DNA from: Acidobacteriota bacterium | Lineage (GTDB): Bacteria; Acidobacteriota; UBA6911; RPQK01; JAJDTT01 | Reading direction: 5' to 3' | NCBI GenBank assembly: GCA_965217775.1 | Contig: CBDCJH010000002.1 | Coordinates: 3,318,686-3,382,685, forward strand | Length of the DNA: 64,000 nucleotides | In this document: positions 9,473-40,036 of the stretch, one piece after another | How the letters are laid out: each line of letters opens with the position of its first letter | Position numbering within the stretch: position 1 is the stretch's first letter | Made by a program: the position numbers and the translations under genes | Notes under the pieces: generated by a model | What the model saw: the letters and a program-made list of their open reading frames with translations, nothing else | What the model was told of the DNA's origin: nothing | Database searches by the model: none

Positions 9473-9499
9473 GGAAGCAAAAGACTGTCCCCTTTTCGG
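9473..9499 (+). promoter_or_regulatory. copy (a) of conserved intergenic motif GGAAG-N-GACTGTCCCCTTTTCGG
   Basis: GGAAGCAAAAGACTGTCCCCTTTTCGG. It lies in the intergenic region upstream of the oxidoreductase start at 9167. Confidence 0.5.
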
Positions 9500-9505
9500 G
9501 TGAGC

Positions 9506-10588
9506 TCACTCAGGTAAACACCTCTCGAAAAAGCGCTGCCAGTTGGCGTACATCACGTTGGCGATGTCCTCGGGTTTCCAGTTGCGCCTTACCAGAGTCT
9601 CGGCGATCTTCGGGTAATCGGCTACGGTGTCGATCCCGCCGGGCGCCCCGGCCAGACCTCCCTGCCCGTCAGTGTCGCCGCCGATAGCGGCGTGGAGGGT
9701 GCTGCCGGCCAATTCGCAGATGTGCTCGATGTGATCGGCGGCGTCCTCCAGCGTCACCTCCTCCCTTGCGAAGGGGCGAGCGCGGCCCATTCCGGGTGTG
9801 GCCCAATCCAGCCTCTGGGTGCGGTGGAGCATCCAGGTGTCCAGCGAGACCCCGATCACTCCTCCCCGCTCGATGACCGCTCGTAGCTGCCGGTCCGAAA
9901 ACTGCCGTTCCCCCGGGACCAGAGCGCGGCAATTCTGGTGGCTGGCCAGGACCGGCCCCTGGAACAGTTCCAGGGACTGCCAGAATCCCTCGTCGGAGAT
10001 GTGGGTCAGGTCCAGGATCATTCCGGTCCGCTCCATTTCCGCCAGCAACGGCCGCGCCGGTGGAAACAACCCTCCGGGACAGCCCGTCCCGTGCGCGTAA
10101 CTGCTGGGGCCGTAGTGGGTCAGGCTCACGACTCGGAGTCCCCAGTCCCACCACAGGGACAACTGCTCGGGCCAGAGAATGGGATCGGCCCCCTCCATCC
10201 CCAGGACCACGCCCACGGCTCGTCCGGCCGTTTCGGCCGCATCTGTCCATTCCTCCATGTGGCGGCTGAATTCGGACCGGGTCTCGAGAATCCGGATTTC
10301 TCCACGGGCCGCCAGGACCTGATAGAAGGCGAGGTGACCGCGGGCGGCGGCATGGGCCAAGTCCCCACTACGGTAGCCCCGGAGGGGACTGCCTTCTCTT
10401 TCGATCCGAGCTACCACCTTGACCAGCGCGCCCGCAATCCCACCCCGTCTCATCTCGGGCAGGGTGGCCAGGACCAGATTGCCCGAGTCCGGGTCGGCCC
10501 GGCGCACCGCCTCGACGGGCAGGGTCAGATCCCGGTTCAACTCCAGGGCACTGTAAGCCATCGGGTAGTCGCCATCGAAAATGAGCAT
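9506..10588 (-). CDS. membrane dipeptidase (peptidase M19)-like protein
   Basis: Family blocks VVSLTHYGPSSYAHG, ILDLTHISDEGFWQSLELFQGPVLASHQNCRAL and GGVIGVS. The usual N-terminal DGHND zinc motif reads FDGDYP, so it may be a divergent member. Confidence 0.7.
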   Translation of the reverse strand: MLIFDGDYPMAYSALELNRDLTLPVEAVRRADPDSGNLVLATLPEMRRGGIAGALVKVVARIEREGSPLRGYRSGDLAHAAARGHLAFYQVLAARGEIRILETRSEFSRHMEEWTDAAETAGRAVGVVLGMEGADPILWPEQLSLWWDWGLRVVSLTHYGPSSYAHGTGCPGGLFPPARPLLAEMERTGMILDLTHISDEGFWQSLELFQGPVLASHQNCRALVPGERQFSDRQLRAVIERGGVIGVSLDTWMLHRTQRLDWATPGMGRARPFAREEVTLEDAADHIEHICELAGSTLHAAIGGDTDGQGGLAGAPGGIDTVADYPKIAETLVRRNWKPEDIANVMYANWQRFFERCLPE

Positions 10589-10593
10589 CCCCT

Positions 10594-10761
10594 TCAGCCT
10601 CCCTTCCCTGGGATCCTGGCTATCCTCAGGGCCGTCGTCTGTCCGGCATCGATCGACTGGTCCTTGTCCAAAACCACTCCGTAGACCTTCCGTGCCGTCG
10701 CCGCCGAGGAGATCCCTTCCCCGAAAACCTCACGGACGCCTTCTCGGGAAAGATCACCAGG
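10594..10761 (-). pseudogene. hydantoinase B/oxoprolinase-family C-terminal fragment
   Basis: ..PGDLSREGVREVFGEGISSAATARKVYGVVLDKDQSIDAGQTTALR.. resembles the extreme C-terminus of the HyuB/oxoprolinase family. Only about 55 codons remain. The stop lies 5 bp before the dipeptidase ATG. Confidence 0.45.
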
Positions 10762-10792
10762 AACGCTCCCATGGCTGCGTCGAGGACCGCCC

Positions 10793-10832
10793 GGAAGAAA
10801 CACGGAAGAAACAGACTGTCCCCTTTTCGGTC
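10793..10832 (+). promoter_or_regulatory. copy (b) of conserved intergenic motif
   Basis: GGAAGAAACACGGAAGAAACAGACTGTCCCCTTTTCGGTC. It is upstream of the dipeptidase (minus strand) and of the sulfatase at 11249 (plus strand). Confidence 0.5.
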
Positions 10833-10935
10833 TCTCTCCAGGTTCGGCGATGATCTCTTGACTTTCAAGCAAACCACGCAGAACCGATGTCGGTTCAAGG
10901 TTCCAGAAACCACAGATCTTTGGGGACGAACGCCG

Positions 10936-11066
10936 ATGATGCTCCGGACGATTGTCCCTCTGCCGGCGCTCCTCGCCGTTATGCCTGCTGTCCCTGGGCA
11001 GGCAAGCCGATCCGTCTCCGGTTCGTCATGAAGGACGCCGACCTCTACCCTCTCCGGTTGCGGTAG
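10936..11066 (+). pseudogene. chimeric scar: sulfatase signal-peptide fragment joined out of frame to the last 21 codons of a type A propeller gene
   Basis: 10936-10998 encodes MMLRTIVPLPALLAVMPAVPGQ, close to the N-terminus of the sulfatase at 27952 (MMLRTIVPLLALLAVMPAVAQ). 11001-11066 encodes GKPIRLRFVMKDADLYPLRLR*, close to 4418-4483. The two parts are offset by 65 nt, which is not a multiple of 3. Confidence 0.7.
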
Positions 11067-11248
11067 GACCTGGCATCCACTTCCCATCCGAGGGAGCGCA
11101 ACGGCACCCGGGAGACGGGAGCATCCGGACAAAGTCGAGAGAAACGACACCGGGCACGCAATGACCAAGATGGCGGAAATGACTCGTCTCCTGACCCCGT
11201 TCGCTGTTTGACTTGACAGGATCGTCGAGGATCTGCCAGTTCTCCTGC

Positions 11249-12598
11249 GTGCCTACCCGGCTCCTGACCCTCCTCGTCATCATGACCGCCGCGTCGGTCG
11301 TTGCCTGCACGGTGGAGACCGGCTCCCGGCGGGACCGCCCCAACATCGTCCTGATCCTGGCGGACGATCTGGGCTACGAAACCCTGGGCGCCTACGGAGG
11401 GCGCTCCTACTCGACGCCGATGCTGGACCGCCTGGCCCGTCAGGGGATTCGTTTCGACCACGCCTATTCCCAGCCGCTCTGCACGAACACCCGCGTGCAG
11501 TTGATGACGGGCCGCTACCAGCACCGCTACTGGCAGGGCTTCGGAATCCTGCCGAAAGGGGAGAGGACCTTCAGCCATCTCATGCAGGAGGCGGGCTACC
11601 GGACGCTGATCTCCGGGAAATGGCAGCTGCACAGCTATGATCCCGCGGACTATCCCGGTGCGGCGGAGAGACGGGGAACGGGTATGCGGGGCGCCGAGTC
11701 GGGATTTGACGAGTATCTGCTCTGGCACGCCTGGCATACCGAGGACAAGGGATCACGGTATGCGGATCCCACCTATGACCTCAATGGAAAGCTGGTTCGG
11801 GCGCAGACGGGGGCTTACGGGCCGGATCTCTTCGTGGACTACATCAACGATTTCGCAGAGCGGAACCGCGACCTTCCGTTCTTTGTCTACTACCCCATGG
11901 CGCTCCCGCACGGCCCCTTCGTACCCACTCCGGACAGCCCCCAATGGCAGCAGGAATCCCGGCGCCACGAATCGGACCCGGCCTACTTTGCCGACATGGT
12001 CGCCTACATGGACAAGCTGGTCGGAAGGATCGTGGCCCACCTGGACCGGCTGGGTCTGCGCCGACAGACTCTGGTCCTGTTCTATGCCGACAACGGCACC
12101 CACAGGATGATTTCTTCGCAGCTTGGAAACCGGACGATCCAGGGCGGAAAGGGAAAGACGACCGATGCCGGAACTCGAGTGCCGATGATCGCCAGTTGGC
12201 CCGGCACGGTTCCGGCCGGCGTGGTCTCACAGGATCTCATCGACTCGGTCGATATCTACCCGACGCTGGCGGAGCTGGCGGGCATCCGGCTCCCAGGCCA
12301 GTCCCTGGTCGACGGCGTCAGTTTTGCGGATCGGCTATGGGGACGGGACGGGGATCGCCGCGACTGGATCTTCATGCACTTCGAACCGAGGCCGGGATGG
12401 GACAAGGACAAGTACGCGCAACTCACGTTCGTCCGCGATCGGAAATACAAGCTGTACGGCAACGGAGAGCTCTACGACATCGAATCCGACGGCCTGGAAG
12501 CCAGCCCCATCCAGGTGTCCCAACGCACCGAGGAGCAACGGCGGATCTCCGAGAGGTTTCGGACCATCCTGGAAAGGCTTGAGGGCCGGAAGAAATGA
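11249..12598 (+). CDS. S1 sulfatase (lipoprotein), copy 2 of duplicated pair, C-T-N-T-R motif
   Basis: Collinear with 4759-6108 and nearly identical over long stretches (NIVLILADDLGYE, PLCTNTRVQLMTGRYQHRYWQ, GKGKTTDAGTRVPMI). Lipobox ..SVVAC. Confidence 0.9.
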   Translation: MPTRLLTLLVIMTAASVVACTVETGSRRDRPNIVLILADDLGYETLGAYGGRSYSTPMLDRLARQGIRFDHAYSQPLCTNTRVQLMTGRYQHRYWQGFGILPKGERTFSHLMQEAGYRTLISGKWQLHSYDPADYPGAAERRGTGMRGAESGFDEYLLWHAWHTEDKGSRYADPTYDLNGKLVRAQTGAYGPDLFVDYINDFAERNRDLPFFVYYPMALPHGPFVPTPDSPQWQQESRRHESDPAYFADMVAYMDKLVGRIVAHLDRLGLRRQTLVLFYADNGTHRMISSQLGNRTIQGGKGKTTDAGTRVPMIASWPGTVPAGVVSQDLIDSVDIYPTLAELAGIRLPGQSLVDGVSFADRLWGRDGDRRDWIFMHFEPRPGWDKDKYAQLTFVRDRKYKLYGNGELYDIESDGLEASPIQVSQRTEEQRRISERFRTILERLEGRKK

Positions 12599-12668
12599 CC
12601 GCGGGACGCCGATCTGGCTGCGCCTGCGGCCTCGATCCATCGGCATTACCCAGCTTCTCCAATACTAT

Positions 12669-12826
12669 CAGTCCGTGGTGAAAGTCCCGCGAGCACCGAG
12701 ACCGTTCCTGCGCCCGCCGGACAAGGCGCGATTCGGGTGCATACCGGGAGTATGTGCCCGAATCGCAACGCAGTCCGCCGGGATGCAGGGACGGTCGAAT
12801 GCCGTGGCGACTTTTGCCACGGGCTG
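12669..12826 (+). repeat. MITE-like repeat, family A, copy A3
   Basis: 158 bp. Terminal inverted repeats CAGTCCGTGGTGAAAGTC / GACTTTTGCCACGGGCTG. Flanked by the 4-bp direct repeat CTAT. Confidence 0.8.
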
Positions 12827-13386
12827 CTATGGGCCTCTCCGCCACCCCGGCGGCCCAGGCTGGCCCTCGCGGGTTCCCGGTTGACGCGTGCCACGCCACC
12901 GGCGGGGCTTCCCGTGTTGCTACCCTCTCCCTCTTGTCCACATGCCACCGCCACTACCCCGGCGGAACCGGCCGGTGCTTACGTCGCTCGCTTCCCGGCC
13001 GCTGCCAGCCTTCGTGCGTATCTCAGGCGGGTCGGCTTCCGCATTGCCCGTTTCGAGGCCTGCGCAGCGTTCGCTCAAGCTACGGCCTGCGGACTCGCTG
13101 AGTCGCCCGAGGCGACCCTTTGGCATCGGAGTGCTTCAGTCCAATTCGTTACCTCCTTGAACCGCTCCGACTGCTACCGGCTGGAGCGACAGTTGCCGGG
13201 CGAGTTTCGCACCCGCTAGGAGAAAGCGCCTTTCCATGGCGTACTGAGAAATGCGGGCCAGGGCCGCTGCCCGTCTTCGCCACCCAGGCTTGACTCCCCG
13301 CAGGGTTCCGATGAAGACTTGTCTTCAAACGCGAGCGGTCCTCTTAACCCGGTCCCTGGCTGGCGCGGCGCTGCAGATAAGGCTCG

Positions 13387-14088
13387 ATGAAGCGGCTCTT
13401 GTCATTTTCTGCGATTGCATTCCACATCTTGGCCGCCTCTTGTCCGTCCGTGAGGATGGCAAGGGCGGCAACTCCGTTCGCCACCGATCTGTTTGTCGGC
13501 GGGCAGGGCGGCTACCACGCTTATCGAATCCCGGCGATGATCGTCTCGCCGCAGGGCTCGCTGATCGTCTTCTGCGAGGCTCGCAAGTCGAGCCTGTCGG
13601 ACCACGGGGATATCGACCTGCTCCTGCGGCGTAGCGAAGACGGCGGCAGGACTTGGCTGGCGCCGCGGCTGGTGATCGAGGAAGGCGGAGACGCCCCGAT
13701 CAAGTACGGCAATCCCACGGCAGTCGTCGATCGGGAAACGGGCTCCATCTGGTTGGCAGTCAATCGCGATTACCTCGACCCACGTGGCCGGCGTCAGGGA
13801 GGAAGACCCCTTCTCCTTCGCAGCGACGACGACGGAAACAGTTGGTTGAACCCGATAGACATATACGGCGCAGACGAAAAAACCGGTTGGAAGCATTACG
13901 CATTCGGCCCCGGCATCCGCATTCAACTGCAGCACGGCCGGCACCAAGGCCGGCTCATCCTGCCGGCCAACTATCGAGAGTCATTCGACAAACGGCAACC
14001 AAGTCGGTCCCACGTCATCTTCAGCGACGATCACGGCAGATCATTGAATGCCGTTGCGGCATTGGGAGAAAGACCGGACAGGTACTGA
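13387..14088 (+). CDS. GH33 sialidase, C-terminally truncated (probably non-functional)
   Basis: Signal peptide, YRIP motif, and Asp-boxes SEDGGRTW and SDDDGNSW. The third Asp-box is broken (SDDHGRS then unrelated residues and a stop). It has 233 aa versus 384 aa for the intact paralog at 32711-33865. Confidence 0.7.
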   Translation: MKRLLSFSAIAFHILAASCPSVRMARAATPFATDLFVGGQGGYHAYRIPAMIVSPQGSLIVFCEARKSSLSDHGDIDLLLRRSEDGGRTWLAPRLVIEEGGDAPIKYGNPTAVVDRETGSIWLAVNRDYLDPRGRRQGGRPLLLRSDDDGNSWLNPIDIYGADEKTGWKHYAFGPGIRIQLQHGRHQGRLILPANYRESFDKRQPSRSHVIFSDDHGRSLNAVAALGERPDRY

Positions 14089-14103
14089 AGAAAGGAGACG
14101 CCC

Positions 14104-16413
14104 ATGTTCAGACACCTGCAACGAGTGTTGGCGGCGGCGGCCGTGGTGCTGCCTGCGCTAGCCTCGACGCCTCTGGACCGTCCGCCCCGGCAGGATGAGC
14201 AGACGTTCCTGCTGCTGCATCTGGACGAGCCGGACGAAGGAATAGCGGTCGCCGACAAGGTGCTGGTGGATCCCGTCTACGTGCGGATGGAGGCCCGGCA
14301 CCAGCAGGGACGTTTCGGTGGAGCTCTGAAGTTCGTAGGTCGGCCAGGTCTCCGCCAGTGTCTGTTGGTTTCTCTGCCCCAGCCGCAATATCTGACCCGT
14401 CACACCCGCAAGCGTCCACCCATCCGCTTCGCGGATGTCGAAGTGCCGGTGGTCCTCATGGACAACCAGAGGGGCTACACCATCGAGTTCTGGATGCTTC
14501 CCCAGGCCCGGCAGGCGCAGGTCATGCTGGCGGGGGTCAACTCGGCGACCTGGGTCCCCACATCCTCCTGGAAGGTGGAAATCACCGGGCAAGGGCGGTT
14601 GCGTTTCGCCAGCGGAGCCGGCCTCCACCGTTTTTACATGGAGAGCGAGAAGCCAGTCGCCATCGGCCGCTGGACCCACGTGGCCGTGGTCTGCGACAGG
14701 GGCAACGTGGGCATTTATCTCAACGGCCGCCGGTCCGGTCCGTTTCGGCGGATGGAACTGGCAGAGCGCCAGGGGGTGGGCGAGCCCGGAAGCGACGGCT
14801 CCATCCTGTGTGTCGGCGGTCCCGGGCCGGACGCCCAAACCGGCTTCTTCGACGGCCTGATCGATGAGGTCCGCCTTTCCACGGCGCCGCGCCGTTTCGA
14901 GCCCGATCCCGCCATCCTGATCGGCAACGGCAAGGAGCTGTTCCTGGATGATTTTCTGCTGGCTCGAATGGAGGGGATCGAACGGGTCGTGAACCAACCT
15001 GAGCGCTACCCGGGCAACCCGCTGCTGACGGCCAAGGGCGACTGGGAAGCCGGCTCCATGCAACAGTTCGGAACCCTCTATGATCCCCGGCTGCAATTGT
15101 TCCGAACCTGGTACCGGGCCAACAACAGCGAGGACAACCAGATGAGCATGTGCTACGCCGTGAGCCGCGACGGCCTTCGGTGGGAGCAGCCGGTGCTGGG
15201 TCTGGCGGAATATCGAGGCTCGACGCGGAACAACATCGTCACGCCGAAGCGGTCCTTCTTCGTGTTCCTGGACCCTCTGGCCCGGCCAGGCGAGGGGAAC
15301 ATCTGCGCCAGCGCGAAGATGCTTTACGGGTCCGACCGGGGGACCTTCAAGCAGATCCTCCTGCGCTCCCCCGACGGACTCCACTGGCCCTGGGGGCCGG
15401 TGCGGAACATGAGCGGCTACCAGGGTTGGCCCTACAGCCGCATCCGCCGCCAGGAAGCCGTCATGGCCACCGACCGGCCGCTCATGCAGAATCCAGTCTA
15501 CTTCGCCCGCCTCGACAAGATGACGGTGATCGCCAACGAGGGCGAGGGGTTGAAGGACCGGGTCTATGCCCGCATCGGGTGGGACCTGACCCACTGGCAG
15601 GACCCGGTCTTGACGGACCTGAAGCGGAGCGAAAAAAACAATCTGGGCTGGTACGGCATCCGGACCAAGGACGAGTCCAGCGTCCTGGTGGGATTCACCG
15701 ACGCCTACCACAATGAGCAGAATCCGGATCCCCGCTGGAGGAGCCTGGGGCCCGAGGCCTACCAGGACAAGCCCAGCGCCTGGCTCGACATTCAGCTCAT
15801 CAGTTCGCGCGACGGCTACCGTTGGCAGCACGTGGCGGACCAGGATGTGTTCCTGCCGGTGGGTCCGGAGGGCGCCTGGGACGAGGGGATGGTGCTGTAC
15901 GCACAGGCCGTCGAGCCTCCGGGATCGGACCGGATCTACCTCTACTACCAGGGCTCGCCCGTCCGCCACGACATGACCGATGCCGGATGGCTCCAGTGGC
16001 ACGCCCGTTCCCAACGACCCTCAAACAACATGGGCGTCGCGTTTCTGAGGAAGGAGGGCTACGTCAGCCTGGAGGTGAAGCCGGATGCGGCCGAAGGCGT
16101 GGTCGAAACCCGGCCGCTCCGATACCGGGGACGGCACCTCTTCGTCAATGCCGACGCCTCGAAGGGCGCGGTCCAGGTGGAACTCTGCGACGAGACGGGG
16201 AATCCCCTGTCCGGGTTCGGACGGAAGCGGGCCCTGCCGTTGACGACGGACGTGACGAACCATCTCATTCGCTGGGGCCAAGAGAGCGACGTCTCGCGGT
16301 TTGCGGGCCAGGCTGTGGTCCTTCGTTTCCACCTGACACCGGGCGCAAAATTGTACGCGTATCGCTTTGGTGGGCCCGACCCCCACCTGGATCTCGAGCG
16401 CCGGGAGCCGTAG
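14104..16413 (+). CDS. LamG/ConA-like lectin domain fused to type B propeller/sandwich glycoside hydrolase-like module
   Basis: The N-terminal roughly 270 aa (RFGGALKF.., FTIEFWM, WTHVAVVCD, IYLNG, FDGLIDEVRLS) has the LamG-type jelly-roll pattern. The remainder aligns with 38086-39717 and 46621-48165 (ELFLDDFLL, GNPLL, YDP..QLFRTWY, AVSRDGLRWEQP, NNIV, SRDGYRW, VVLRFHL..AKLYAYRF). It is a paralog of 35681-38011. Confidence 0.85.
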   Translation: MFRHLQRVLAAAAVVLPALASTPLDRPPRQDEQTFLLLHLDEPDEGIAVADKVLVDPVYVRMEARHQQGRFGGALKFVGRPGLRQCLLVSLPQPQYLTRHTRKRPPIRFADVEVPVVLMDNQRGYTIEFWMLPQARQAQVMLAGVNSATWVPTSSWKVEITGQGRLRFASGAGLHRFYMESEKPVAIGRWTHVAVVCDRGNVGIYLNGRRSGPFRRMELAERQGVGEPGSDGSILCVGGPGPDAQTGFFDGLIDEVRLSTAPRRFEPDPAILIGNGKELFLDDFLLARMEGIERVVNQPERYPGNPLLTAKGDWEAGSMQQFGTLYDPRLQLFRTWYRANNSEDNQMSMCYAVSRDGLRWEQPVLGLAEYRGSTRNNIVTPKRSFFVFLDPLARPGEGNICASAKMLYGSDRGTFKQILLRSPDGLHWPWGPVRNMSGYQGWPYSRIRRQEAVMATDRPLMQNPVYFARLDKMTVIANEGEGLKDRVYARIGWDLTHWQDPVLTDLKRSEKNNLGWYGIRTKDESSVLVGFTDAYHNEQNPDPRWRSLGPEAYQDKPSAWLDIQLISSRDGYRWQHVADQDVFLPVGPEGAWDEGMVLYAQAVEPPGSDRIYLYYQGSPVRHDMTDAGWLQWHARSQRPSNNMGVAFLRKEGYVSLEVKPDAAEGVVETRPLRYRGRHLFVNADASKGAVQVELCDETGNPLSGFGRKRALPLTTDVTNHLIRWGQESDVSRFAGQAVVLRFHLTPGAKLYAYRFGGPDPHLDLERREP

Positions 16414-16414
16414 C

Positions 16415-17908
16415 ATGTTCAGGGTCCCTGGTAACCGCACCAGTGGACGGCTGTATTCCGCGGCTCTACGCCGGGCACGAACGTTTCCTCTTCTCCTGCT
16501 CTCGGCTTTCCTGGCCGGATTCTCCTCCGGATGCACCCGGCAGCTCGAGCGGCCGAACATCGTTTTGATCCTGGCCGATGACCTGGGCTGGAACCAGTTG
16601 GGCTGCTACGGAAGCAGTTTCTACGAGACTCCCAACCTCGACGGCATGGCTCGAGAGGGGATGCGTCTCACCGACGCCTACGCGGCCAGCCCCGTCTGCT
16701 CCCCGACTCGAGCCAGCATCATGACGGGCAAGTACCCGGCGCGACTCCACGTCACCAAGTTCATCTCGCCGCAGGACTACGTCCCCAACCCGAACGCCAA
16801 GCTGTTGGATCCCGACTGGACACCCTATCTGCGCTTGGAGGAGGAGACGATCGCCGAAGCCTTGAAGAAGCTGGGGTACGTGACGGCCGGCTTCGGAAAA
16901 TGGCACCTCAGCCGCGTCAAGACGCCTCCCGAGAGCCTGCCCTTCAATCCGGACAAGCAAGGTTTCGACCAGCACTTCGTAACCTACAAGCCGGTCCCAT
17001 CCATGGCCAGGAAGTGGCAGACGCCGGAGGACGATGCCCACAACGTGGGAATCATCACCGAGAAGTCCCTGGAGTTCATGGAGAAGAACCGTGAGAGGCC
17101 CTTCTTCCTCTTCGTTTCGCACAACAGCATTCACACCCCCCTGGTGGAGAAGAAGGCTCTGATCTCCAAGTACCGGAGGAAGCCGGACGTCGACTCTCCC
17201 ACCAACCACCCGGTTATCGGAGCCATGATCGAGACCCTGGATCGCAGTGTCGGCCGGCTGCTGGCCAAAATCGACGAGATGAAGCTGACCGAGAGGACCC
17301 TCGTGCTTTTCTATTCCGACAACGGAGGATTGGATTGGACCGCGACCGAGGGGCAGATCGCCGCCAACGATCCGTTGCGGGCCGGAAAGGCCGACCTCTA
17401 CGAAGGGGGAATCCGGGTGCCCTTGATCGTCCGCTGGCCGGGCCGAATCCCCCCCGGCCGCGTCTCCGGGGAACCTGTCAACAGCGTGGATCTCTTTCCC
17501 ACGCTGCTGGAGGCAGCCGGAGGCACCGAGACGGGCAAGGACACCGACGGCGTGAGCCTGCTGCCGCTTCTCACGGGGCCCGTGGTCCCCGGCCGGGACG
17601 CGCTCTTCTGGCACTACCCCCACTACCACAAGTTCGGAGCCTTCCCTTCGAGCGCCATCCGGAAGGGTGAGTACAAACTGATCGAGTGGCACGAGGCCGG
17701 GATCTACGGATCGGACAATCGGTACGAACTCTACGACTTGGTGGACGATCTGGGGGAGTCTCGAAATCTGGCCTCCGTCCTGCCGGAGAAGACCCGGGAA
17801 CTGGCAGCCGACCTGGAGAACTGGCGGCGCTCGGTGGGAGCCCAGATGCCGAAGCGCAACCCCGACTATCGGCCGGAAGGCCAGCCGCGGGCGCGTGACC
17901 GGGAGTAG
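16415..17908 (+). CDS. S1 sulfatase (lipoprotein), canonical CSPTR motif
   Basis: Lipobox FSSGC. Blocks NIVLILADDLGWN, SPVCSPTRASIMTGKYP, GKWHL, SDNGG, GKADLYEGGIRVP, DLFPTLLE. The ATG lies 2 nt after the upstream stop. It is a close paralog of 53555-55000. Confidence 0.92.
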   Translation: MFRVPGNRTSGRLYSAALRRARTFPLLLLSAFLAGFSSGCTRQLERPNIVLILADDLGWNQLGCYGSSFYETPNLDGMAREGMRLTDAYAASPVCSPTRASIMTGKYPARLHVTKFISPQDYVPNPNAKLLDPDWTPYLRLEEETIAEALKKLGYVTAGFGKWHLSRVKTPPESLPFNPDKQGFDQHFVTYKPVPSMARKWQTPEDDAHNVGIITEKSLEFMEKNRERPFFLFVSHNSIHTPLVEKKALISKYRRKPDVDSPTNHPVIGAMIETLDRSVGRLLAKIDEMKLTERTLVLFYSDNGGLDWTATEGQIAANDPLRAGKADLYEGGIRVPLIVRWPGRIPPGRVSGEPVNSVDLFPTLLEAAGGTETGKDTDGVSLLPLLTGPVVPGRDALFWHYPHYHKFGAFPSSAIRKGEYKLIEWHEAGIYGSDNRYELYDLVDDLGESRNLASVLPEKTRELAADLENWRRSVGAQMPKRNPDYRPEGQPRARDRE

Positions 17909-19741
17909 ATCGATGCCGGGAACCGGAAGAGACTCGGGGCGGCTCCGATTTCAGCCATGGGCGGGACCGCGAGGAAAGGTGGCTATCCATCTCGCCCTGG
18001 TTCTCGGCGTGGCCTTTTCCGCCGGCTGGCCGGACATCGTGGTGGCCAACTATGGCGAGGAGAGCGGGCATCGCCAAGGTTATCGCCTGCACCGGGAGTC
18101 GTATGTCTACTGGGGGGCTCCCGACGGGTACTCAGCCGAGCGGCGCACGTCCATCCCCACCTTGAGCGCCATCAGCTGTGCCGTCGGGGACTTCGACGGC
18201 GACGGATGGGCAGATCTCGCGTTTGCCAACAACAACCTCGAGCACCAGAGCCTGAGTCTCCATTGGGGCTCGAGCGCGGGATTCGACGGCGCCAGGCAGC
18301 TGGATCTGGAGGCGGGCAACCCGCGGCTGGTCCGAGCCGCCGATCTCGATCTCGACGGGACAGACGAACTGGTCGTGTTCTCGGGGAAGACGAGATCGGC
18401 CTTCTTCGATGCCGATCGAACCGAGAGATCCAACCTGGATTCGGGATCCGCGGGCCTTCTGCTCTTCCAAATCTCTGAAAGGCCCAGCTTGGGCCGGCCC
18501 CGGCGCCTGCCCGCCGAGGAGGTCCGGGAGGTGATCGCCCGGGACCTCAACGGAGACGGTCACGTCGACCTGACTCTGGCCGGCCAAGTCGCCGATCAAG
18601 GGTCGGAAGTCACGGGTTCGGCACTCTACTGGGGATCGGGCGCCGGATTCGATCCCGGGCGGCGGACCGTTCTGCCGACTCTTTCCCCGGGATCGGTGGC
18701 GTCTGCGGATCTCAACCGGGACGGCCATATCGACCTGGTCTTCGCCAACGCGGAAACCTCCAAGACCCACGACCCTCCCTCCCACATCTACTGGGGGTCG
18801 GAGAAGGGCTTCCACCCGGCCCGGCGCTCCCACCTGCAGGGGTTCGGAGCCGTCGGCGTGACGGCCGCGGACCTGAACCGGGACGGCCATCCCGAGATCG
18901 TGCTCATGAACCGGCTCAGCGGCAGGAAAGCGGGCGAAATTCCTTCGCTCATCTTCTGGGGGAACTCGGCCCATCACTACTCGGAGGCGAAAGCGGTAGA
19001 ATCGGTCCATATTTCCCCGATTTGTCGGCGAATAGAACAACTATGCACCTCCAAATCGAGAAAATCTGGCCTCGATTCCCCACTTTCTCGCTACGATCAT
19101 TTCTACCGCGCAGACTCCTGGTTTCCAGCAACTACAAGGCGGAGCAGACCCGGAGCCTTCCCGTCTTCATCTATTGGGGCAGCGCCGGGGCCGGCTACGA
19201 AAACCGCCGCAGGACCGAACTTCCGGCGGAATCATCCTGCGGCATCCAGTTGCTGGACCTGAATCAGGACCGGTACCCGGAGATCGTCGTCAAAAACCAC
19301 ATCAAGGATGGCGACCACAACTTCGGCGCCTACCTCTACTGGGGAGGCGAGGAGGGCTATTCCGTACAGCGCCGGACCCACCTTCCAACGGCGGGAACGC
19401 ATTTCGCTCATGGGATCGCTCCCGGCAACATCTATGACCGGGGTCCTGAGTACGACTATCTGTCGCCGGTGCTCCCGATCCCGGACAAACGGTGCTTCCT
19501 GGTTCCTGAATGGAGGGGTGAGACACCCCACAACACCTCGATCCGCATGCAGCTTCGCTTCGGATCTGACCAGTCACCATTGACTGGCGCCGCCTGGAGG
19601 GAGACCGGCCGCGGGGAGTGCCACTCCCTGAATGAGGATTCCGCGGCCCTGCAATACCGTGCCGTCCTGGTATCGCCGGATGGGGGCAACAGTCCCGTCC
19701 TGGAGGAAGTCATCCTGCGTTTCGTGGACTCATGTCCCTGA
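17895..19741 (+). pseudogene. FG-GAP/VCBS-repeat protein gene interrupted by a MITE-like element (two overlapping ORFs in different frames)
   Basis: Seven repeats of the type DLN-DG-x-D..(I/V)YWG-x-x-x-GF/Y-x-x-x-RR. The repeat series breaks at ..IFWGNSAHHYSEAKA (about 18986). It resumes in another frame at ..SSNYKAEQTRSLPVFIYWGSAGAGY (about 19119), with roughly one third of a repeat missing. Confidence 0.7.
18987..19118 (+). mobile_element. MITE-like repeat, family B, copy B1 (left end truncated), inserted in the FG-GAP gene
   Basis: 132 bp, nearly identical to 21424-21555 with 2 mismatches seen. More AT-rich than its surroundings. Internal inverted repeat GCGGTAGAA..TTCTACCGC. Confidence 0.8.
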
Positions 19742-19894: not shown

Positions 19895-21361
19895 ATGTTT
19901 TCTTCCTTCCTCCTTCGAACCTTCCGGATCGCAGCCGGTTTCCCGCTGCTGGCGTCGTGTCATCCCACGCCTGAACCAGCGGATGCGTCGGAATCCTTGG
20001 CGATCGGCACGAGACTGGAACTGCTCCTGGACGACTATCTGATCGAGTCCCGCAGGAACCTGGAATTCGATGTCCATCAGCCTCGGCCTGCAGAGAAAGT
20101 GATGACCTTCGAAGCTCTCTGGGAGGGCCCCTTCTGCGATTACTTCACCGTCTTCGAGGACAAGGGTGTCTTCCGAATGTACTACGCGACTCACCCACAA
20201 GCAGGCTTCGCCTCGGACACGGATCAGTTCACCTGCTATGCGGAGAGCACGGACGGAATCCACTGGACGAAACCATGGCTCGGAATCGTCCAGTTCCAGG
20301 GATCCGGGAACAACAACATCATCAATCGAGGCTGGACCGCTCACAATTTCAGCCCCTTCATCGACACCAAACCGGGGACGCCTGCCGACCAACGATACAA
20401 AGCGGTCGGAGGTCATGCCCGGATCGGCGGGCTGAAGGTCTTCGCCTCGCGCGATGGCCTTCACTGGCGCCTTTTGGCCGAAGAGGCCCGGATCACCAAG
20501 GGCAGCTATCCGGAACCCGTGGGTTTCGATTCGCAGAACATCGCCTTCTGGGATCCGCGCCGAGAATCCTACTTCGCCTATTTCCGAGTCAAACACAACG
20601 GCAAGCGGGCCATCGGCATCAGCTCCTCGAAAGACTTTCTCCACTGGTCGGATCCCGAACTGGTACGGGTGGAAGCTCCTTCTCAGGAACACATCTATAC
20701 GAATGCGACGCTCCCCTATTTCCGAGCGCCTCACCTCTACCTGGCCTTTCCCATGCGTTATGCTCCCGGCCACCCCTCTTCGATCCCAGACACCAAGAGC
20801 GCCTGCGACGCTGTCTTGATGTCCAGCCGGGACGGCAGAAACTTCAAGCAGCATTCCAGCGAGCCTTTTCTCTGGCCCGGTCCCGAGAAGGAGAACTGGA
20901 CCAAGCACAGCAACATGCCGGCCTGGGGGTTGCTGGCCACATCGGAAACCGAGTTGTCGGTGTACTACACCCAGCATTTCTATCTCCCCACCGCCCACTT
21001 GAGGCGAGGAACAATGGGTATCGACCGCTTCGTCTCCCTGCACGCTCCCCTCTCAGGAGGGGAGTGGACCAGCAAACCGCTGCAATTCTCCGGCGATGAC
21101 CTGGTCCTGAATTACCGGACGAGCGCCGTCGGCAGCATCCGCGTGTCGATCCTGGACCGCGACGGGCAACCGCTGGACGGCTTCCAACTGGAGCAGTGCC
21201 CCGAGATTTACGGCGACGAGATCGCGCGCACTGTATCCTGGGAAGACGGCGGGGCGAAGCTGGCGAAACTGAAGGGTCAAATCGTCCGTCTGCGTTTCGT
21301 GATGGAGGATGCGGATCTCTTCTCGATCCAGTTCCGGGAGGCTCAGGCGGCCGGCAGCTGA
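19895..21361 (+). CDS. putative glycoside hydrolase-like protein, type A propeller/sandwich family (lipoprotein)
   Basis: Lipobox LLASC. Blocks LELLLDDYLIE, FRMYY, CYAESTDGIHWTKP, NNII, SRDGLHW, AFWD, PYFRAPHLY, SRDGRNF, GSIRVSILD, RLRFVMEDADLFS. Confidence 0.85.
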   Translation: MFSSFLLRTFRIAAGFPLLASCHPTPEPADASESLAIGTRLELLLDDYLIESRRNLEFDVHQPRPAEKVMTFEALWEGPFCDYFTVFEDKGVFRMYYATHPQAGFASDTDQFTCYAESTDGIHWTKPWLGIVQFQGSGNNNIINRGWTAHNFSPFIDTKPGTPADQRYKAVGGHARIGGLKVFASRDGLHWRLLAEEARITKGSYPEPVGFDSQNIAFWDPRRESYFAYFRVKHNGKRAIGISSSKDFLHWSDPELVRVEAPSQEHIYTNATLPYFRAPHLYLAFPMRYAPGHPSSIPDTKSACDAVLMSSRDGRNFKQHSSEPFLWPGPEKENWTKHSNMPAWGLLATSETELSVYYTQHFYLPTAHLRRGTMGIDRFVSLHAPLSGGEWTSKPLQFSGDDLVLNYRTSAVGSIRVSILDRDGQPLDGFQLEQCPEIYGDEIARTVSWEDGGAKLAKLKGQIVRLRFVMEDADLFSIQFREAQAAGS

Positions 21362-21394
21362 CGAGGTCGAACGGGATAGTCGATTCTCGGCCCA

Positions 21395-21555
21395 GGAGCC
21401 TGCGCGGCAGAAATTGATCTACTGCGAAAGCGGTAGAATCGGTCCATATTCCCCCGATTTCTCGGCGAATAGAACAACTATGCACCTCCAAATCGAGAAA
21501 ATCTGGCCTCGATTCCCCACTTTCTCGCTACGATCATTTCTACCGCGCAGACTCC
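21395..21555 (+). repeat. MITE-like repeat, family B, copy B2 (full length)
   Basis: 161 bp with about 38-bp imperfect terminal inverted repeats: GGAGCCTGCGCGGCAGAAATTGATCTACTGCGAAAGCGG versus the reverse complement of the right end GGAGTCTGCGCGGTAGAAATGATCGTAGCGAGAAAGTGG. The termini resemble family A termini. Confidence 0.75.
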
Positions 21556-21583
21556 CCGGTCCCTTCAACCTGGAGGACGGACG

Positions 21584-23107
21584 ATGAGAATGAGACTTTC
21601 GGCTCTCACGGCGGCCTTCCTGGCGCTCCCTCTGGGTGCGGCGCCCCCTGCAGAGCAGGCCGAATCCGGGAAGCCTATCGACATCGGCTCCCGACTGGAA
21701 CTTTTCGTCGATCACCACCTGATCGATCGGCTGGACGGAGCGCGCCTGATGATGGGACACCCCCGGCCGGCGGGAACAGTCCTGAAGGCGGATCGGCCGT
21801 GGGAGGGTCCCCACAACTGGGGTTTCCAGGTGATCCACGACGGCGGCGTCTATCGCATGTTCTACCGGGGATGGTCCGAAGACGGATCCGTCGTCCTCTG
21901 CTACGCCGAGAGCCGCGACGGTGTCCGCTGGGAGAAACCCAGTCTGGGGCTGCTGGAGGTGAATGGCACCCGGGAGAACAACGCGGTGGCCGTGGTCGAC
22001 GAGACCGGTCGCCGCCCGGTCCACTACCTTTTCCCTTTCATCGACGCCCGTCCCGGCGTGCCGGCCGCCGAGCGTGTGAAGGGAATCCGCGCCATCCTCC
22101 AGTCCAAGGAACCATTCCTCATGCACGTCTACCTGTACGGTTCCAAAGACTGGTTCCAGTGGCGGCGGCTACGCGAGGAACCCATCATCGCAACCGGAAT
22201 CCGCAACGCCTTCGATGCCTCCAACTACGTCTTCTGGTCGCAGACGGAGGGACTCTACGTCTGCTATTTCCGCTACATGGTAAAGCGCCCAAACAGCTCT
22301 TCTCCGTCAGGACTCCGATCCATTCAGCGTGCCACCTCCCGGGATCTGATTCACTGGTCCGAGCCGAAGGGGATGACCTACAGCGATACCGGGACCGTCG
22401 TACCCTCCGACCACTTGTACACCAACAACACGGAGCCCTATTTTCGAGCCCCCCATCTCTACGTGGCTCTGGCTGCCCGTTTCATGAAGGGCCGACGCGT
22501 CGTCACCGACGCCCAACTGGACCGGATGCGAGTGGCTTCACAAGGAGGCCACGCCTACTACGAGGACTGCTCCGACGGGGTGCTTCTGACGACCCGGCCC
22601 GGGACCACCCGGATCGACCGGACCTTCCTGGAGGCCCTGGTGCGGCCGGGGCGGGGACCGGAGAACTGGGTCTCCCGGACCAACTATCCCCTGAGGGGAG
22701 TGGTGCAGACCGGACCCGCGGAGATGTCGTTCTTCGTGAGCCGGCACTACGCCCAACCTTCCTGGCACATCGAGCGCATGACCCTGCGCCTGGATGGATT
22801 CAGCTCCGTTCGGGCTCCCTACCAGGGAGGCGAGATGCTCACCAGACCCCTGATCTTCTCGGGAAACCGGCTGGTGATCAACTACGCCACCAGCGCGGCC
22901 GGAAGTCTTCGAGTGGAGGTCCAGGACATGGGAGGCCAGCCTTTCCCCGGATTCTCTCTCTCCGATTGCCGGGAGATCATCGGGGACGAGATCGAACGTC
23001 TGGTCACGTGGGAAGGTCGCCAGGATCTGAGTCGTCTCTCAGGGAAGCCGGTTCGGCTGCGCTTCGTCATGAAGGATGCGGATCTCTACTCCATGAGATT
23101 CCGATAG
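21584..23107 (+). CDS. putative glycoside hydrolase-like protein, type A propeller/sandwich family
   Basis: Signal peptide. Blocks LELFVDHHLID, YRMFYRG, CYAESRDGVRWEKP, NNAV, PYFRAPHLY, LRLDGFSS, GSLRVEVQD, RLRFVMKDADLYS. Confidence 0.85.
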   Translation: MRMRLSALTAAFLALPLGAAPPAEQAESGKPIDIGSRLELFVDHHLIDRLDGARLMMGHPRPAGTVLKADRPWEGPHNWGFQVIHDGGVYRMFYRGWSEDGSVVLCYAESRDGVRWEKPSLGLLEVNGTRENNAVAVVDETGRRPVHYLFPFIDARPGVPAAERVKGIRAILQSKEPFLMHVYLYGSKDWFQWRRLREEPIIATGIRNAFDASNYVFWSQTEGLYVCYFRYMVKRPNSSSPSGLRSIQRATSRDLIHWSEPKGMTYSDTGTVVPSDHLYTNNTEPYFRAPHLYVALAARFMKGRRVVTDAQLDRMRVASQGGHAYYEDCSDGVLLTTRPGTTRIDRTFLEALVRPGRGPENWVSRTNYPLRGVVQTGPAEMSFFVSRHYAQPSWHIERMTLRLDGFSSVRAPYQGGEMLTRPLIFSGNRLVINYATSAAGSLRVEVQDMGGQPFPGFSLSDCREIIGDEIERLVTWEGRQDLSRLSGKPVRLRFVMKDADLYSMRFR

Positions 23108-23173: not shown

Positions 23174-24544
23174 TCAGTACGCTTCCGTAACCCCGAACAA
23201 AGGCGGGTTGCTCATCCACTTGCCCTGGGTGAAATCCGGGAAGTCCACCGGTGCGCTCGAGCGCCGGATCGATTGTTCGGAGAGGGGTGAGATCGCCATC
23301 CAGGCCGCCATGTCGTAGACGTCGATGGGAGGGTCGATCTTCCGCTTGATGCACTCCTTGAAGGCCCGGAGTTCCAGAAAGTCGGTTCCGCCATGTCCTT
23401 TGCGGATTCCCTCGGCCAAGTATCTCTTCCACAGCGGATGCTCGAACCGTTCCTGAAATCGATCGAAGGACTGCCACCGGTGCCGTGGCTCCATGCCGTC
23501 CAGGTAGATCATGGACTTGTCCTTCGAACGGCTGTCCGCATCCTGCATCCAGATGCCTTTCGTACCCTGGACCACGTACAGGAAGGAGTTGGGTCGGGGC
23601 AGGCGGGTGTCGAACTTGATGACCACCGTTTCCTCATTCGAACACTTGATGGTCGTGGTGACGAGATCACCCTGCTTCCAGGCGATGTTTCGACGCGGGT
23701 GACCGGCCGGAAGATTCTCCTCGGACCATTTGCCCAAGCCTCGTGACTTGGTGGCCATCGAGGTCAGGTATTCGAAACGGTTCCCTCGTTGAATGTTCAG
23801 GCAGTGGGCTACGGGACCGATGCTGTGGGTCGGATAGAGCTCTCCGTTGCGGTACTGGTTGTGCATGGAGCGGTAGTCCCCTTCCCCCTTGGGAGTGGGA
23901 CCCGTGCCCTTTCCCAGGACCAGGCGTTCGCGCAGATCATGGGCATAACCGCACTGGCAGTGGATCAGTTCCCCGAATACGCTCTCGCGGACCATTCTGA
24001 GGATCGCCATGTTGTATCGGGCATAGCAGTTATTCTCCAGGAGCATGCAGGGAACCCGGGTTTCCTCGTAGGTCTCCACCAGTTCCCAGCACTCTTCGAT
24101 GGAGTTGGCCGGGCCGACTTCGACTCCCGCATAGATTCCGGCCTTCATGGAATCGACGGCCATGGGGATGTGCAGCTCCCAGGGAGTGGCGATGACGACA
24201 CCGTCGAGGTCATCGCGTTGCAGCAATTCGAGGTAGGAGCGCTCATCCTTGCCGTACCCCTCGGGACGTGAGCGGCCCGACTCCTCGACCGCGTCCTGAG
24301 CTCGACGCAGGTTGTCGGGGGCGATGTCGCAAACCGCTGGTATGCTCACGTCGGAAAACCCCAGACACAACCTCAGGAGCTTCGATCCCCGGCCTCCTAT
24401 GCCAATCAAGCCGAGGCTGACCTTCTGGTCATCGGCGCCCTTCAGGATGGCGGGCGTCAGACCGAGTCCAAGGCCGGCAGCGGACACCTGCTTGAGGAAA
24501 CCTCGGCGGTCGGATTGCGAAACGCTCATGTTCTGTCGGTTCAT
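23174..24544 (-). CDS. GH109-like NAD-dependent glycosidase (Gfo/Idh/MocA fold), TAT-exported
   Basis: TAT signal DRRGFLKQVSAAGLG and Rossmann motif LGLIGIGGRGS. Blocks typical of the GH109 alpha-N-acetylgalactosaminidase family: ATPWELH, EVGPANSIEECWELVETYEETRVPCMLLENNCY, GELIHCQCGYAHDLR, NGELYPTHSIGP. The ORF-track start at 24625 lies inside repeat A4, so ATG 24544 was chosen. Confidence 0.8.
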   Translation of the reverse strand: MNRQNMSVSQSDRRGFLKQVSAAGLGLGLTPAILKGADDQKVSLGLIGIGGRGSKLLRLCLGFSDVSIPAVCDIAPDNLRRAQDAVEESGRSRPEGYGKDERSYLELLQRDDLDGVVIATPWELHIPMAVDSMKAGIYAGVEVGPANSIEECWELVETYEETRVPCMLLENNCYARYNMAILRMVRESVFGELIHCQCGYAHDLRERLVLGKGTGPTPKGEGDYRSMHNQYRNGELYPTHSIGPVAHCLNIQRGNRFEYLTSMATKSRGLGKWSEENLPAGHPRRNIAWKQGDLVTTTIKCSNEETVVIKFDTRLPRPNSFLYVVQGTKGIWMQDADSRSKDKSMIYLDGMEPRHRWQSFDRFQERFEHPLWKRYLAEGIRKGHGGTDFLELRAFKECIKRKIDPPIDVYDMAAWMAISPLSEQSIRRSSAPVDFPDFTQGKWMSNPPLFGVTEAY

Positions 24545-24593
24545 CCTGTTCCTCCTGGCCCGACCGAGCCGTCTTCCCGGCGGCAGGTTCGGT

Positions 24594-24750
24594 AGTCTGT
24601 GGCGAAAGTCGTCACGCCATTCCACTGGGTCTGCATTCCGGCAGACCGGGTTGCTTCTCGATCACATAGGGTCGAATAGGTTCCCTCGTCGCGCCTTGTC
24701 CGGCGGACGCAGCCCCCGTCTCGGCGCTACGCAGGATTTCTACCACGGGA
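24594..24750 (-). repeat. MITE-like repeat, family A, copy A4 (inverted orientation)
   Basis: The reverse complement aligns with A1-A3 (..CCGCCGGACAAGGCGCGACGAGG.., ..GCCGGAATGCAGACCC..). It sits 50 bp upstream of the GH109-like start and directly abuts motif copy (c). Confidence 0.7.
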
Positions 24751-32463: not shown

Positions 32464-32710
32464 GTACGAAGCTCGATCCCGCCCGATCTGATCCCAGCTT
32501 TACCTATGAAGGATCGCAAGCGATTGACGGGCGTCCGTTACGGTGCGAAGCTGCGGAATAGGCGAGGGCTCTCGGATGCCTACCCTCCGAGGCGGAGAGG
32601 ATTGTGCGGTTGTCCGACTCCATCCAGCACGCACGGATTCAATAACGGTCCGACTCTCTTGCCGGAACCTACGGACCGGATCACTTCGGGGTGAAGTGGA
32701 GAATTCCACT

Positions 32711-33865
32711 ATGAGACCCACAACCCATTTTTTCTGGACCGCCGCGGTGCTTCTAGCCTCTCTTTCGGCGTCGAGCGCCCAACCCTTGATCGACCATGTC
32801 GATGTCTTCGCCTCCGGGAGCGAGGGCTATCACACCTTCCGGATTCCAGCGATCGTGCGAGCGCCGGACGGTTCGCTACTGGCCTTCGCGGAGGGTCGCA
32901 AGGAGAATCGCCGCGACCCCGGAGGAGGCGACATCGATCTGGTCTACAAGCGAAGCAAGGATCGCGGCGCCAGTTGGTCCCCGCTAAAGATCGTGGACGA
33001 CCCCGGCGTGGGGTGGAGCGCTTCCAACCCGACCCCCGTCATCGAGCGGAACAGCAGCCGTATTCTGATTGTCTACAACCGTTGGGAGCCGGGCTTCGGA
33101 ACCGCCCTTTCCCGGCCCGGGACCGACAACAACCAGGCGTGGTTCCGGTACAGCGACGACCACGGCGGCAACTGGTCGGAACCTCGGGAGATCACCCGGG
33201 AGGCGAGGGATCATGAGGACTGGGGAGCCATGTTCCTGGGTCCCGGAGGGGCGATCCAGACGCGCAGCGGTCGGCTGCTGGTTCCCGCCGCGGCCAAGAT
33301 CGGAACGGCCTTCTCGATCCTGGTGTCCGCCGACCAGGAACCTCGGACCGCCACCTACATGCGCGCCTACGTCCTGTTCAGCGACGACCGGGGCGAAACC
33401 TGGAGCCGAGGAGAATTGGTCGACGCTCTCACGGACGAGAATCAATTGGTCGAACTGGCCGACGGGACCATCTTGATGGACGCCCGGCAGAGCCGCGGCG
33501 GCCGGCGCTGGGTTGCGATCAGCGGCGACGGAGGAAGCACCTGGTCCCGGCCGCGACCTGGACAAGAAGTCACCAGGGTCGCCACGGCCATCGAACGCTA
33601 CAGCCTGCACTCCGCGGGCGCCGGACGGAATCGAATCCTGTGGACGGGCCCCAAGGGACCCGGCCGCCTCAACCTCGTTCTACGGGTCAGCGACGATGAA
33701 GGGCAGACCTTCGGCCGGGAGAAACTCCTCTACGGAGGATTCTCAGCCTACTCCGACCTGGAGATGTTGGATGACGGGTCGGTCGGGGTATTGTGGGAGA
33801 GAGGGCTCAGTGCGAGCTACCAATTCATCACCTTCACCCGATTCCGCCTGGAAGCCCTGGAGTGA
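32711..33865 (+). CDS. GH33 exo-alpha-sialidase
   Basis: Signal peptide, FRIP motif, and Asp-boxes SKDRGASW, SDDHGGNW, SDDRGETW, SGDGGSTW, SDDEGQTF. Confidence 0.88.
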   Translation: MRPTTHFFWTAAVLLASLSASSAQPLIDHVDVFASGSEGYHTFRIPAIVRAPDGSLLAFAEGRKENRRDPGGGDIDLVYKRSKDRGASWSPLKIVDDPGVGWSASNPTPVIERNSSRILIVYNRWEPGFGTALSRPGTDNNQAWFRYSDDHGGNWSEPREITREARDHEDWGAMFLGPGGAIQTRSGRLLVPAAAKIGTAFSILVSADQEPRTATYMRAYVLFSDDRGETWSRGELVDALTDENQLVELADGTILMDARQSRGGRRWVAISGDGGSTWSRPRPGQEVTRVATAIERYSLHSAGAGRNRILWTGPKGPGRLNLVLRVSDDEGQTFGREKLLYGGFSAYSDLEMLDDGSVGVLWERGLSASYQFITFTRFRLEALE

Positions 33866-40020: not shown

Positions 40021-40036
40021 TAGGAGAGGAGGCATT

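Follow-up and report, generated by a model that had tools for sequence, protein, structure and literature searches.

What do the ten related genes that crowd one sulfatase-rich island of an Acidobacteriota bacterium encode, and do they belong to a known enzyme family? The window analyzed here is a stretch of 64,000 nucleotides (assembly GCA_965217775.1, contig CBDCJH010000002.1, positions 3,318,686 to 3,382,685), in which an original prediction, made from the sequence alone, had described a ten-member family of β-propeller plus β-sandwich proteins. We consider it probable that the ten are old paralogs, split into three subfamilies, from a single very large family of exported propeller-plus-sandwich proteins, which would most likely be periplasmic or cell-surface glycoside hydrolases (GH). 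As far as tested, the proposal of a candidate new family, which we would assign to the five-bladed glycosidase superfamily, is supported by the predicted fold, the lack of library matches, and the conserved acidic residues, and also by the placement of relatives in SusC/SusD loci beside BNR_2, GH92, and GH123-like genes and by the enzyme-rich island itself.

Members and Subfamilies

Ten related open reading frames (ORFs) were recovered by ORF listing and translation where the original prediction had put them, and are confirmed as paralogs by alignment and by the profile comparison of types A and B. The ten paralogs and one 5′ relic occupy about 16.5 kb, ~26% of the bases of the window. In the span 19895-23107, the type A genes 19895-21361 and 21584-23107 follow each other in tandem. 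The members are:

1066-2541, + strand: type A, 491 amino acids, putative signal peptide; translation and alignment; carries PWEG, YFRAPH, and four blade motifs; unmatched in Pfam and NCBIfam
3032-4483, + strand: type A, 483 amino acids, putative signal peptide; alignment and motifs; a sulfatase gene begins 123 bp downstream
14104-16413, + strand: type C, 769 amino acids, with putative signal peptide, Laminin_G_3 domain (Pfam PF13385, E = 9e-17), propeller, and sandwich; alignment and identity matrix
19895-21361, + strand: type A, 488 amino acids, with an N-terminus ending ...PLLASC, a lipoprotein-like signal (lipobox inferred from the sequence); alignment and motifs
21584-23107, + strand: type A, 507 amino acids, the modeled type A protein (AlphaFold2 pLDDT 92.9, pTM 0.89; Foldseek against PDB)
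35681-38011, + strand: type C, 776 amino acids, with putative signal peptide, Laminin_G_3 domain (PF13385, E = 4e-17), propeller, and sandwich; alignment and motifs
38086-39717, - strand: type B, 543 amino acids; alignment, profile-profile comparison, and motifs
39884-40040, + strand: probable relic of a third gene of type C (LamG-type), representing its 5′ end, at the start of ORF 39884-40867; in BLASTP its 52 residues are 58% identical to the 35681 protein (E = 4e-14)
46621-48165, - strand: type B, 514 amino acids, the modeled type B protein (AlphaFold2 pLDDT 92.9; Foldseek against PDB)
48190-49836, - strand: type A, 548 amino acids, with an insertion of ~50 residues in blade 3; translation, alignment, and motifs
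62905-64000, - strand: type A, 5′ end beyond the window edge, the most divergent type A member (YFRAAR for YFRAPH); translation and motifs

The last gene continues past the end of the window, that is, it is cut by the edge and is not a short gene.

In a MAFFT alignment the ten members share 18 invariant columns. Members of type A are 38-50% identical to one another, the two type B members 50%, and the two LamG-fused genes 61%; across groups, identity falls to 27-31% for A against B and to 24-28% for the LamG-fused pair against A or B. Because of this last value, the C-terminal modules of the 14104 and 35681 genes, originally counted as type B, are better treated as a third subfamily, and by sequence identity the family is divided into A (six genes), B (two), and the LamG-fused C (two). 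Profile-profile comparison of types A and B gives a match over the full length with a probability of 100% and E = 7e-74, which excludes chance. The nearest relative found is an Acidobacteriota metagenome-assembled genome, in which the 21584 gene has a 92%-identical ortholog, flanked by a GFO/IDH/MocA gene on one side and a GH109-like gene on the other. Since its paralogs are at most 50% identical while this ortholog from another genome is 92% identical, the tenfold expansion is, by sequence divergence, an old one and not a recent tandem burst.

The motifs first noted in these proteins are all present. Blade motifs of the form S-x-D-G-x-x-W occur three to four times per protein, (P/L/D/E)WE(G/A) is found in all nine members with an N-terminus in the window, and the family members carry the C-terminal block RLRF..DADL(Y/F)S..F. 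The block Y(F/Y)RAPH, described as a type A feature (PYFRAPH), occurs in five of the six type A genes, with YFRAAR in the 62905 gene, and the motif scan of the window paralogs did not find YFRAPH in types B and C. Read by eye, the first 20-40 residues resemble signal peptides in each of the nine members that begin inside the window, so that the proteins of the family appear to act outside the cytoplasm.

The relic at 39884-40040 probably marks a lost third type C gene upstream of an unrelated one. After its first ~50 codons, ORF 39884-40867 has a fresh signal-peptide-like stretch (MKPASVVLIAVLVVL...). This ORF is one of three of 327-548 amino acids that have no Pfam or NCBIfam match and each lie beside a family gene, the others being 53-1042 (+) and 33887-35533 (+).

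Size and Distribution of the Family

The ten members have no match above noise in Pfam-A, save for Laminin_G_3 on the two long ones, and none in NCBIfam release 20 (June 2026), where nothing exceeds 15 bits; single sequences of the family compared with PDB sequences likewise gave nothing above noise. The description of the family as unassigned is thus upheld in all three libraries. Family profiles searched against PDB gave weak, local, blade-level matches to GH130 (4onz, E = 3e-6), GH32, and GH117 (4u6d, matched by the type B profile over 36 residues with E = 1e-5).

The family is very large. A word-indexed search with clustering at 90% identity returned more than 7,800 clusters of type A homologs, all of them unnamed or called "hypothetical protein" at source, and 742 of type B. 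When 1.84 billion representatives were searched exhaustively with HMMER, 21,731 proteins matched at E <= 1e-3; the number falls to 12,070 at E <= 1e-10 and to 3,088 at E <= 1e-30. The genome scan located members in Acidobacteriota, Poribacteria, Planctomycetota, Dehalococcoidia (Chloroflexota), Bacteroidota, Verrucomicrobiota, and Hydrogenedentota, and the Bacteroidota carriers include the cultured Mariniphaga sediminis. Several relatives belong to Poribacteria, which we take to point to a sponge-associated source. Family members are also found fused to LamG, BNR_2, α/β-hydrolase or esterase, and fn3 domains.

An already numbered CAZy family, recent and with neither a Pfam model nor a close PDB entry, would turn the locus into an ordinary expansion of classified glycoside hydrolases. 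Many CAZy families created since about 2019 indeed have no Pfam model, and a family with 12,070 representative clusters is a likely target of screening campaigns. We nevertheless find this explanation unlikely, as NCBIfam release 20 holds many equivalog models of characterized glycosidases and none scores above 15 bits, and PDB sequences and folds to April 2026 contain no relative above 18% identity. Further, GH159, the sole recent five-bladed family checked, is a propeller-only, GH43-like family whose entry 7ZEI is not among the matches of our family and was rejected as its home; all source names are "hypothetical protein", and literature searches found nothing.

Should a new glycoside hydrolase family be confirmed, it would comprise more than ten thousand diverged representative clusters, a major enzyme class missed by current counts of carbohydrate-active enzymes in the phyla where it is concentrated, Acidobacteriota, Planctomycetota, Poribacteria, Chloroflexota, and Verrucomicrobiota, whose glycan metabolism is poorly understood. 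The ten diverged paralogs, standing beside sulfatases and sialidases, would then form a ready-made panel for substrate discovery.

Fold and Candidate Catalytic Residues

One type A and one type B protein were modeled with AlphaFold2 from alignments of 53 and 60 sequences. Both models (mean pLDDT 92.9, pTM 0.89) consist almost entirely of β-strands, and their strand order reads as five four-stranded blades, each closing in an S-x-D-G-x-x-W turn, followed by a β-sandwich of ~100 residues, assigned by DSSP to positions 407-506 in type A and 398-505 in type B. The models thus bear out the five-bladed propeller plus β-sandwich architecture proposed for the two types. In Foldseek searches of PDB (to April 2026), the nearest structures to both models are enzymes of the five-bladed superfamily, namely GH130, GH137, GH32, GH43, GH183, and the deacetylase FpGalNAcDeAc, with 9-18% identity and a target-normalized template modeling (TM) score of at most 0.69. 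This agrees with the likeness to GH32-, GH43-, and GH130-type propeller hydrolases suspected from the sequence.

The mapping of invariant acids across the paralogs, proposed as a check, did reveal conserved acidic residues. Types A and B have three in common, namely D154 and the pair D70 and E74, which belongs to the DxPWEG loop that immediately precedes the first inner strand. Further conserved acids are D211, E222, D331, and E350 in type A and D232, E243, E261, and D344 in type B. Y279 and several Arg are invariant, and the many invariant Arg, Tyr, and Trp residues are typical of sugar-binding pockets. The DxPWEG loop takes the position of the WMNDPNG Asp in GH32 and of the catalytic base in GH43. 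With placement on the active-site face read from the strand order of the models and not from coordinates, the candidate catalytic residues would be D70 and E74, D154, and, in type A, D211.

Several observations weigh against a glycosidase assignment. The Foldseek neighbors include a deacetylase (6n1b), which is not a glycosidase, and apart from D70, E74, and D154 the acids differ between types A and B. E74 may be structural, since GH130 sequences have the WE of DxPWEG in the corresponding position, where it is not known to be catalytic. By strand order, D154 terminates an inner strand, possibly on the side facing away from the active site. Finally, literature searches found no paper on the family and no characterized member.

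Some of the same features would suit glycan enzymes that are not hydrolases: GH130-like phosphorylases, lyases that attack sulfated glycans containing uronic acids by means of Tyr, His, and Arg, or deacetylases that depend on a metal, as in the FpGalNAcDeAc propeller. GH130 phosphorylases are among the closest folds, and in a HMMER alignment to 9fj8 the invariant R230 of type A stands opposite the Arg of the GH130 motif ..LHRR, which we take to be phosphate-binding. Y279, R288, H291, and R299 are invariant or nearly so, the GalNAc deacetylase (6n1a, 6n1b) is among both the Foldseek and the HMM matches, and the substrates of the island are anionic. On balance we judge this group of explanations distinctly unlikely. 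The signal-peptide-like N-termini, read by eye, place the proteins outside the cytoplasm, where we know of no phosphorylases, and thus argue against an enzyme of the GH130 type; moreover, the EDPR motif is absent and the GH130 profile comparison is weak and shifted in register. As to the lyases, no five-bladed polysaccharide lyase is known to us, and the YFRAPH block, missing from types B and C, cannot be a family-wide catalytic center.

Genes of the Island

If the ten proteins are glycoside hydrolases, the paralogs may each take off a different sugar, or cut a different linkage, in a complex anionic glycan. In this genome they would act together with some ten sulfatases, the GH33 sialidases, the GH109-like enzyme, and a pathway for 3-keto-glycosides, and the products would be imported via the TonB-type outer-membrane protein and MFS transporter of the island. 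An exo-acting mode seems plausible, and the substrates could be host- or animal-type sulfated, sialylated glycoconjugates. The earlier suggestion that the family supplies the core depolymerases of the island is not borne out, and the closest folds are mostly exo-acting enzymes. The window contains ten sulfatase genes, one of them a fragment, and no family member is more than about 5 kb away from one of these genes. Other island genes encode a TonB-type outer-membrane barrel, an MFS transporter, an esterase, and other hydrolases. Four enzyme genes bear on the pathways mentioned above:

7692-9167, - strand: GFO/IDH/MocA oxidoreductase related to the glycoside 3-dehydrogenase BT_2158 (NCBIfam NF058561, E = 7e-93, below the curated cut-off; Pfam)
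23174-24625, - strand: GH109-like NAD-dependent enzyme adjoining the 21584 gene (Pfam PF21252, E = 2e-65)
32543-33865, + strand: GH33-type exo-sialidase with a FRIP motif (phmmer against PDB 1eur, E = 4e-37; Pfam BNR_2)
55091-55882, - strand: DUF1080 "3-keto-disaccharide hydrolase" (PF06439, E = 6e-44)

The adjacency of a GH109-like gene to a 21584-type gene is also seen in two related loci (L001, which holds the 92%-identical ortholog, and L002). Downstream of the sialidase gene 32543-33865 come an ORF of 548 amino acids (33887-35533) and then the type C gene 35681. The same order of sialidase and type C gene, which extends over 32543-38011, recurs at 13387-14088 (+), where the N-terminal half of a GH33-type sialidase (233 amino acids, YRIP motif, 33% identical to the 32543-33865 sialidase) ends 15 bp before the type C gene 14104; it looks like a truncated sialidase copy.

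The genes 7692-9167 and 55091-55882 represent, amid the sulfatases, two enzymes of the oxidative 3-keto-glycoside cleavage route. For this route, BT2158 was proposed from mutant phenotypes to be a dehydrogenase, exported by twin-arginine translocation (Tat), that makes 3-keto-disaccharides, and the DUF1080 protein BT2157 was assayed on 3-keto-trehalose (PMC8121099). A role of the propeller family as the cleaving enzyme of this pathway was considered and is weakened by the fact that the island has its own DUF1080 3-keto-disaccharide hydrolase.

Three further ORFs were noted in the island. ORF 6351-7385 (+), right after a complete sulfatase gene, is probably a truncated sulfatase, since of the sulfatase domain it retains just the last quarter at the C-terminal side (profile positions 233-301), together with SGSH_C. 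ORF 57120-57845 (-), which overlaps the listed start of the sulfatase ORF 57628, encodes 241 amino acids with OrfB_IS605 and Cas12f1-like TNB domains; by its domains it is a TnpB-type transposon-associated nuclease, short and possibly a fragment. ORF 59895-62774 (-) encodes a putatively exported protein of 959 amino acids in which an N-terminal repeat region (faint Reg_prop matches) precedes a metallohydrolase domain of the CehA/McbA type at the C-terminus (NF038032, E = 2e-19; faint DUF3604).

Neighborhoods in Other Genomes

The strict co-location with sulfatases, from which the role of the family had been argued, is true of this island and its close relatives, but it does not extend to the family as a whole: among 85 related loci, a sulfatase lies within 10 kb in only ten, and the density of sulfatases near family genes is at most two to three times that at 6-10 kb. 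Sulfatases as obligate family-wide partners are thereby ruled out. BNR/Asp-box proteins, on the other hand, are enriched twelve-fold within 1 kb of family genes (20 loci and three fusions), and GFO/IDH/MocA genes are enriched six-fold (14 loci); 24 loci have at least two family members. Free-standing BNR proteins are the commonest immediate neighbors in other genomes, BNR_2 is also the most frequent fusion partner, and the BNR proteins adjoining family genes mostly do not have the sialidase RIP motif. Thus the family-wide partners are BNR/Asp-box six-bladed propellers and Tat-exported GFO/IDH/MocA dehydrogenases, not sulfatases. Bacteroidota family genes lie in SusC/SusD loci. Taken together, these neighborhoods, with few sulfatases, characterize the family as a general glycan-processing module, the link to sulfatases being specific to the lineage studied here.

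Two Bacteroidota loci illustrate this variety. In Mariniphaga sediminis SY21 (L039), a compact locus at 1425-18848 has, in this order, the genes for ECF sigma factor, FecR, SusC, and SusD, two genes of the family, two of BNR_2 type, and those for an SSF symporter, an HpcH/HpaI aldolase, and an aldo/keto reductase; being in a cultured strain, it suits experimental substrate discovery. In Draconibacterium (L055, 362-13230), a family gene is accompanied by two GH92 genes, a GH123-like gene, three GDPD phosphodiesterases, a metallophosphoesterase, and Exo_endo_phos, which suggests that the substrate there is a phosphorylated rather than a sulfated glycan.

Natural fusions, in both domain orders, join a RIP-less BNR/Asp-box (BNR_2) six-bladed propeller to a type A domain (L043 1512-4202, L044 9437-11461, and L062 6216-9356; proteins P0249, P0253, and P0266). 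Recurrent fusion to a BNR propeller offers a testable partner-enzyme hypothesis. A bolder proposal, improbable as it stands, is that the family forms one half of a widespread but hitherto unrecognized glycan-cleavage system. It would be the obligate partner of non-sialidase BNR/Asp-box six-bladed propellers, fused in either order and often beside Tat-exported, glycoside 3-dehydrogenase-like GFO/IDH/MocA enzymes, and its pocket, rich in Arg and Tyr, would handle anionic sugars (sulfate, phosphate, or ulosonic acid carboxylate) by a chemistry unlike the classical Asp/Glu pair of GH32, GH43, and GH130.

That the proteins do not catalyze anything, and have instead turned a glycosidase fold, now inactive, to glycan binding as surface lectins or in substrate capture, is very improbable: the catalytic residues are candidates, the acids differ between subfamilies, and the LamG fusion and one lipoprotein-like signal suit surface binding proteins, but polar loop residues before the inner strands (invariant E74, D154, Y279, and several Arg) are very strongly conserved across phyla, fusion to enzyme domains is repeated, and the ten diverged paralogs stand in a locus otherwise made up of enzymes.

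Comparison with Known Glycoside Hydrolase Families

The candidate glycosidase family can be set against several described systems. The signature motifs of GH32-, GH43-, GH117-, and GH130-like enzymes had been reported as lacking in these proteins; the motif scan confirmed this for GH130 and GH32, and the GH33 signature is absent as well.

The Asp-box of GH33 sialidases and of the BNR six-bladed propellers resembles the S-x-D-G-x-x-W motif of the family, and the conserved Tyr and several Arg of the family are reminiscent of sialidase active sites. These enzymes, however, have six blades as against five. The ten members have no PF13088 (BNR_2) or PF13859 match and only a 12-bit BNR repeat in one of them, no sialidase is among the 50 listed Foldseek matches per model, every one of which is an enzyme with the five-bladed fold, and no RIP motif was seen when the ten translations were read by eye.

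The propeller fold is shared with the clan GH-F families GH43, GH117, and GH159 and with GH137 (BT0996, 5mt2), the last of which ranks fourth and ninth in the two Foldseek searches. Two-domain GH43 β-xylosidases have a C-terminal sandwich like that of the family. No Pfam match to GH43, GH117, or GH159 was obtained in the ten members. In clan GH-F, the catalytic triad consists of an Asp in blade 1, an Asp in blade 3, and a Glu in blade 4 (PMC9278983). By strand order, D70 and E74 precede blade 1, D211 precedes blade 3 in type A only, and blade 4 has no conserved acid; only the blade 1 acid of the triad has a plausible equivalent (E74).

With GH32, the fructofuranosidases and levanases of clan GH-J (BT1760 endo-levanase, 6r3r; 7vco; 8a9y), the family has in common the two-domain layout of propeller and sandwich, aligned by Foldseek over ~550 columns, at 8-14% identity. 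The WMNDPNG, RDP, and EC motifs of GH32 are absent from the ten paralogs, save for an RDP that the 38086 protein has by chance. Against PF00251 (cut-off 22.1), no window member scores higher than 16 bits, and a few relatives elsewhere pass, over a single blade; this match aligns blade 1 of GH32 with blade 3 of the family and is a blade-level resemblance only. Precomputed hits to PF22847, PF13088, and PF00251 on a few relatives were rescanned, and only PF00251 was retained, at the level of a single blade.

GH130 contains β-mannoside phosphorylases and β-1,2-mannosidases. The two "novel β-galactosidases" Lac161_ORF10 and AGW45552 (PMC5342196), considered as possible characterized relatives, are DUF377 and TIGR02604 proteins, and neither model matches the family. 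The GH130 model itself, PF04041 (Glyco_hydro_130/DUF377), has no match at E <= 1 in any of the ten members, and the (V/I/C)EDPR(I/V) motif, which opens blade 2 in GH130 and holds the catalytic Asp, is absent from all of them. In profile alignments (hhalign) to three GH130-like sequences from plasmids, type A gave a probability of 8.8% and type B 52.9%, the latter over 47 columns in the wrong blade register; the mapping of GH130 catalytic residues onto the family was rejected, as these alignments are too weak and shifted in register. In the single HMMER alignment that covers it, the GH130 catalytic Asp falls opposite an unconserved position of the family.

The structural likeness to GH130 is nonetheless the closest. 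TM1225 (1vkd), Teth514_1788/1789 (9fj8, 7fip), and BACOVA_02161 (4onz) have a five-bladed propeller as in the family and give the best Foldseek matches (E = 2e-11 for 1vkd, with a target-normalized TM of 0.62, and 1.4e-11 for 9fj8; TM range 0.6-0.69) at 10-18% identity. The family and GH130 share the blade motif ..YR...S.DG..W and the N-terminal lead-in NP(I/V)(I/L)...WE, whereas the family has an additional C-terminal β-sandwich, N-terminal strands, and signal-peptide-like N-termini. The architecture of the family is that of GH32 and two-domain GH43, and its propeller is structurally closest to GH130.

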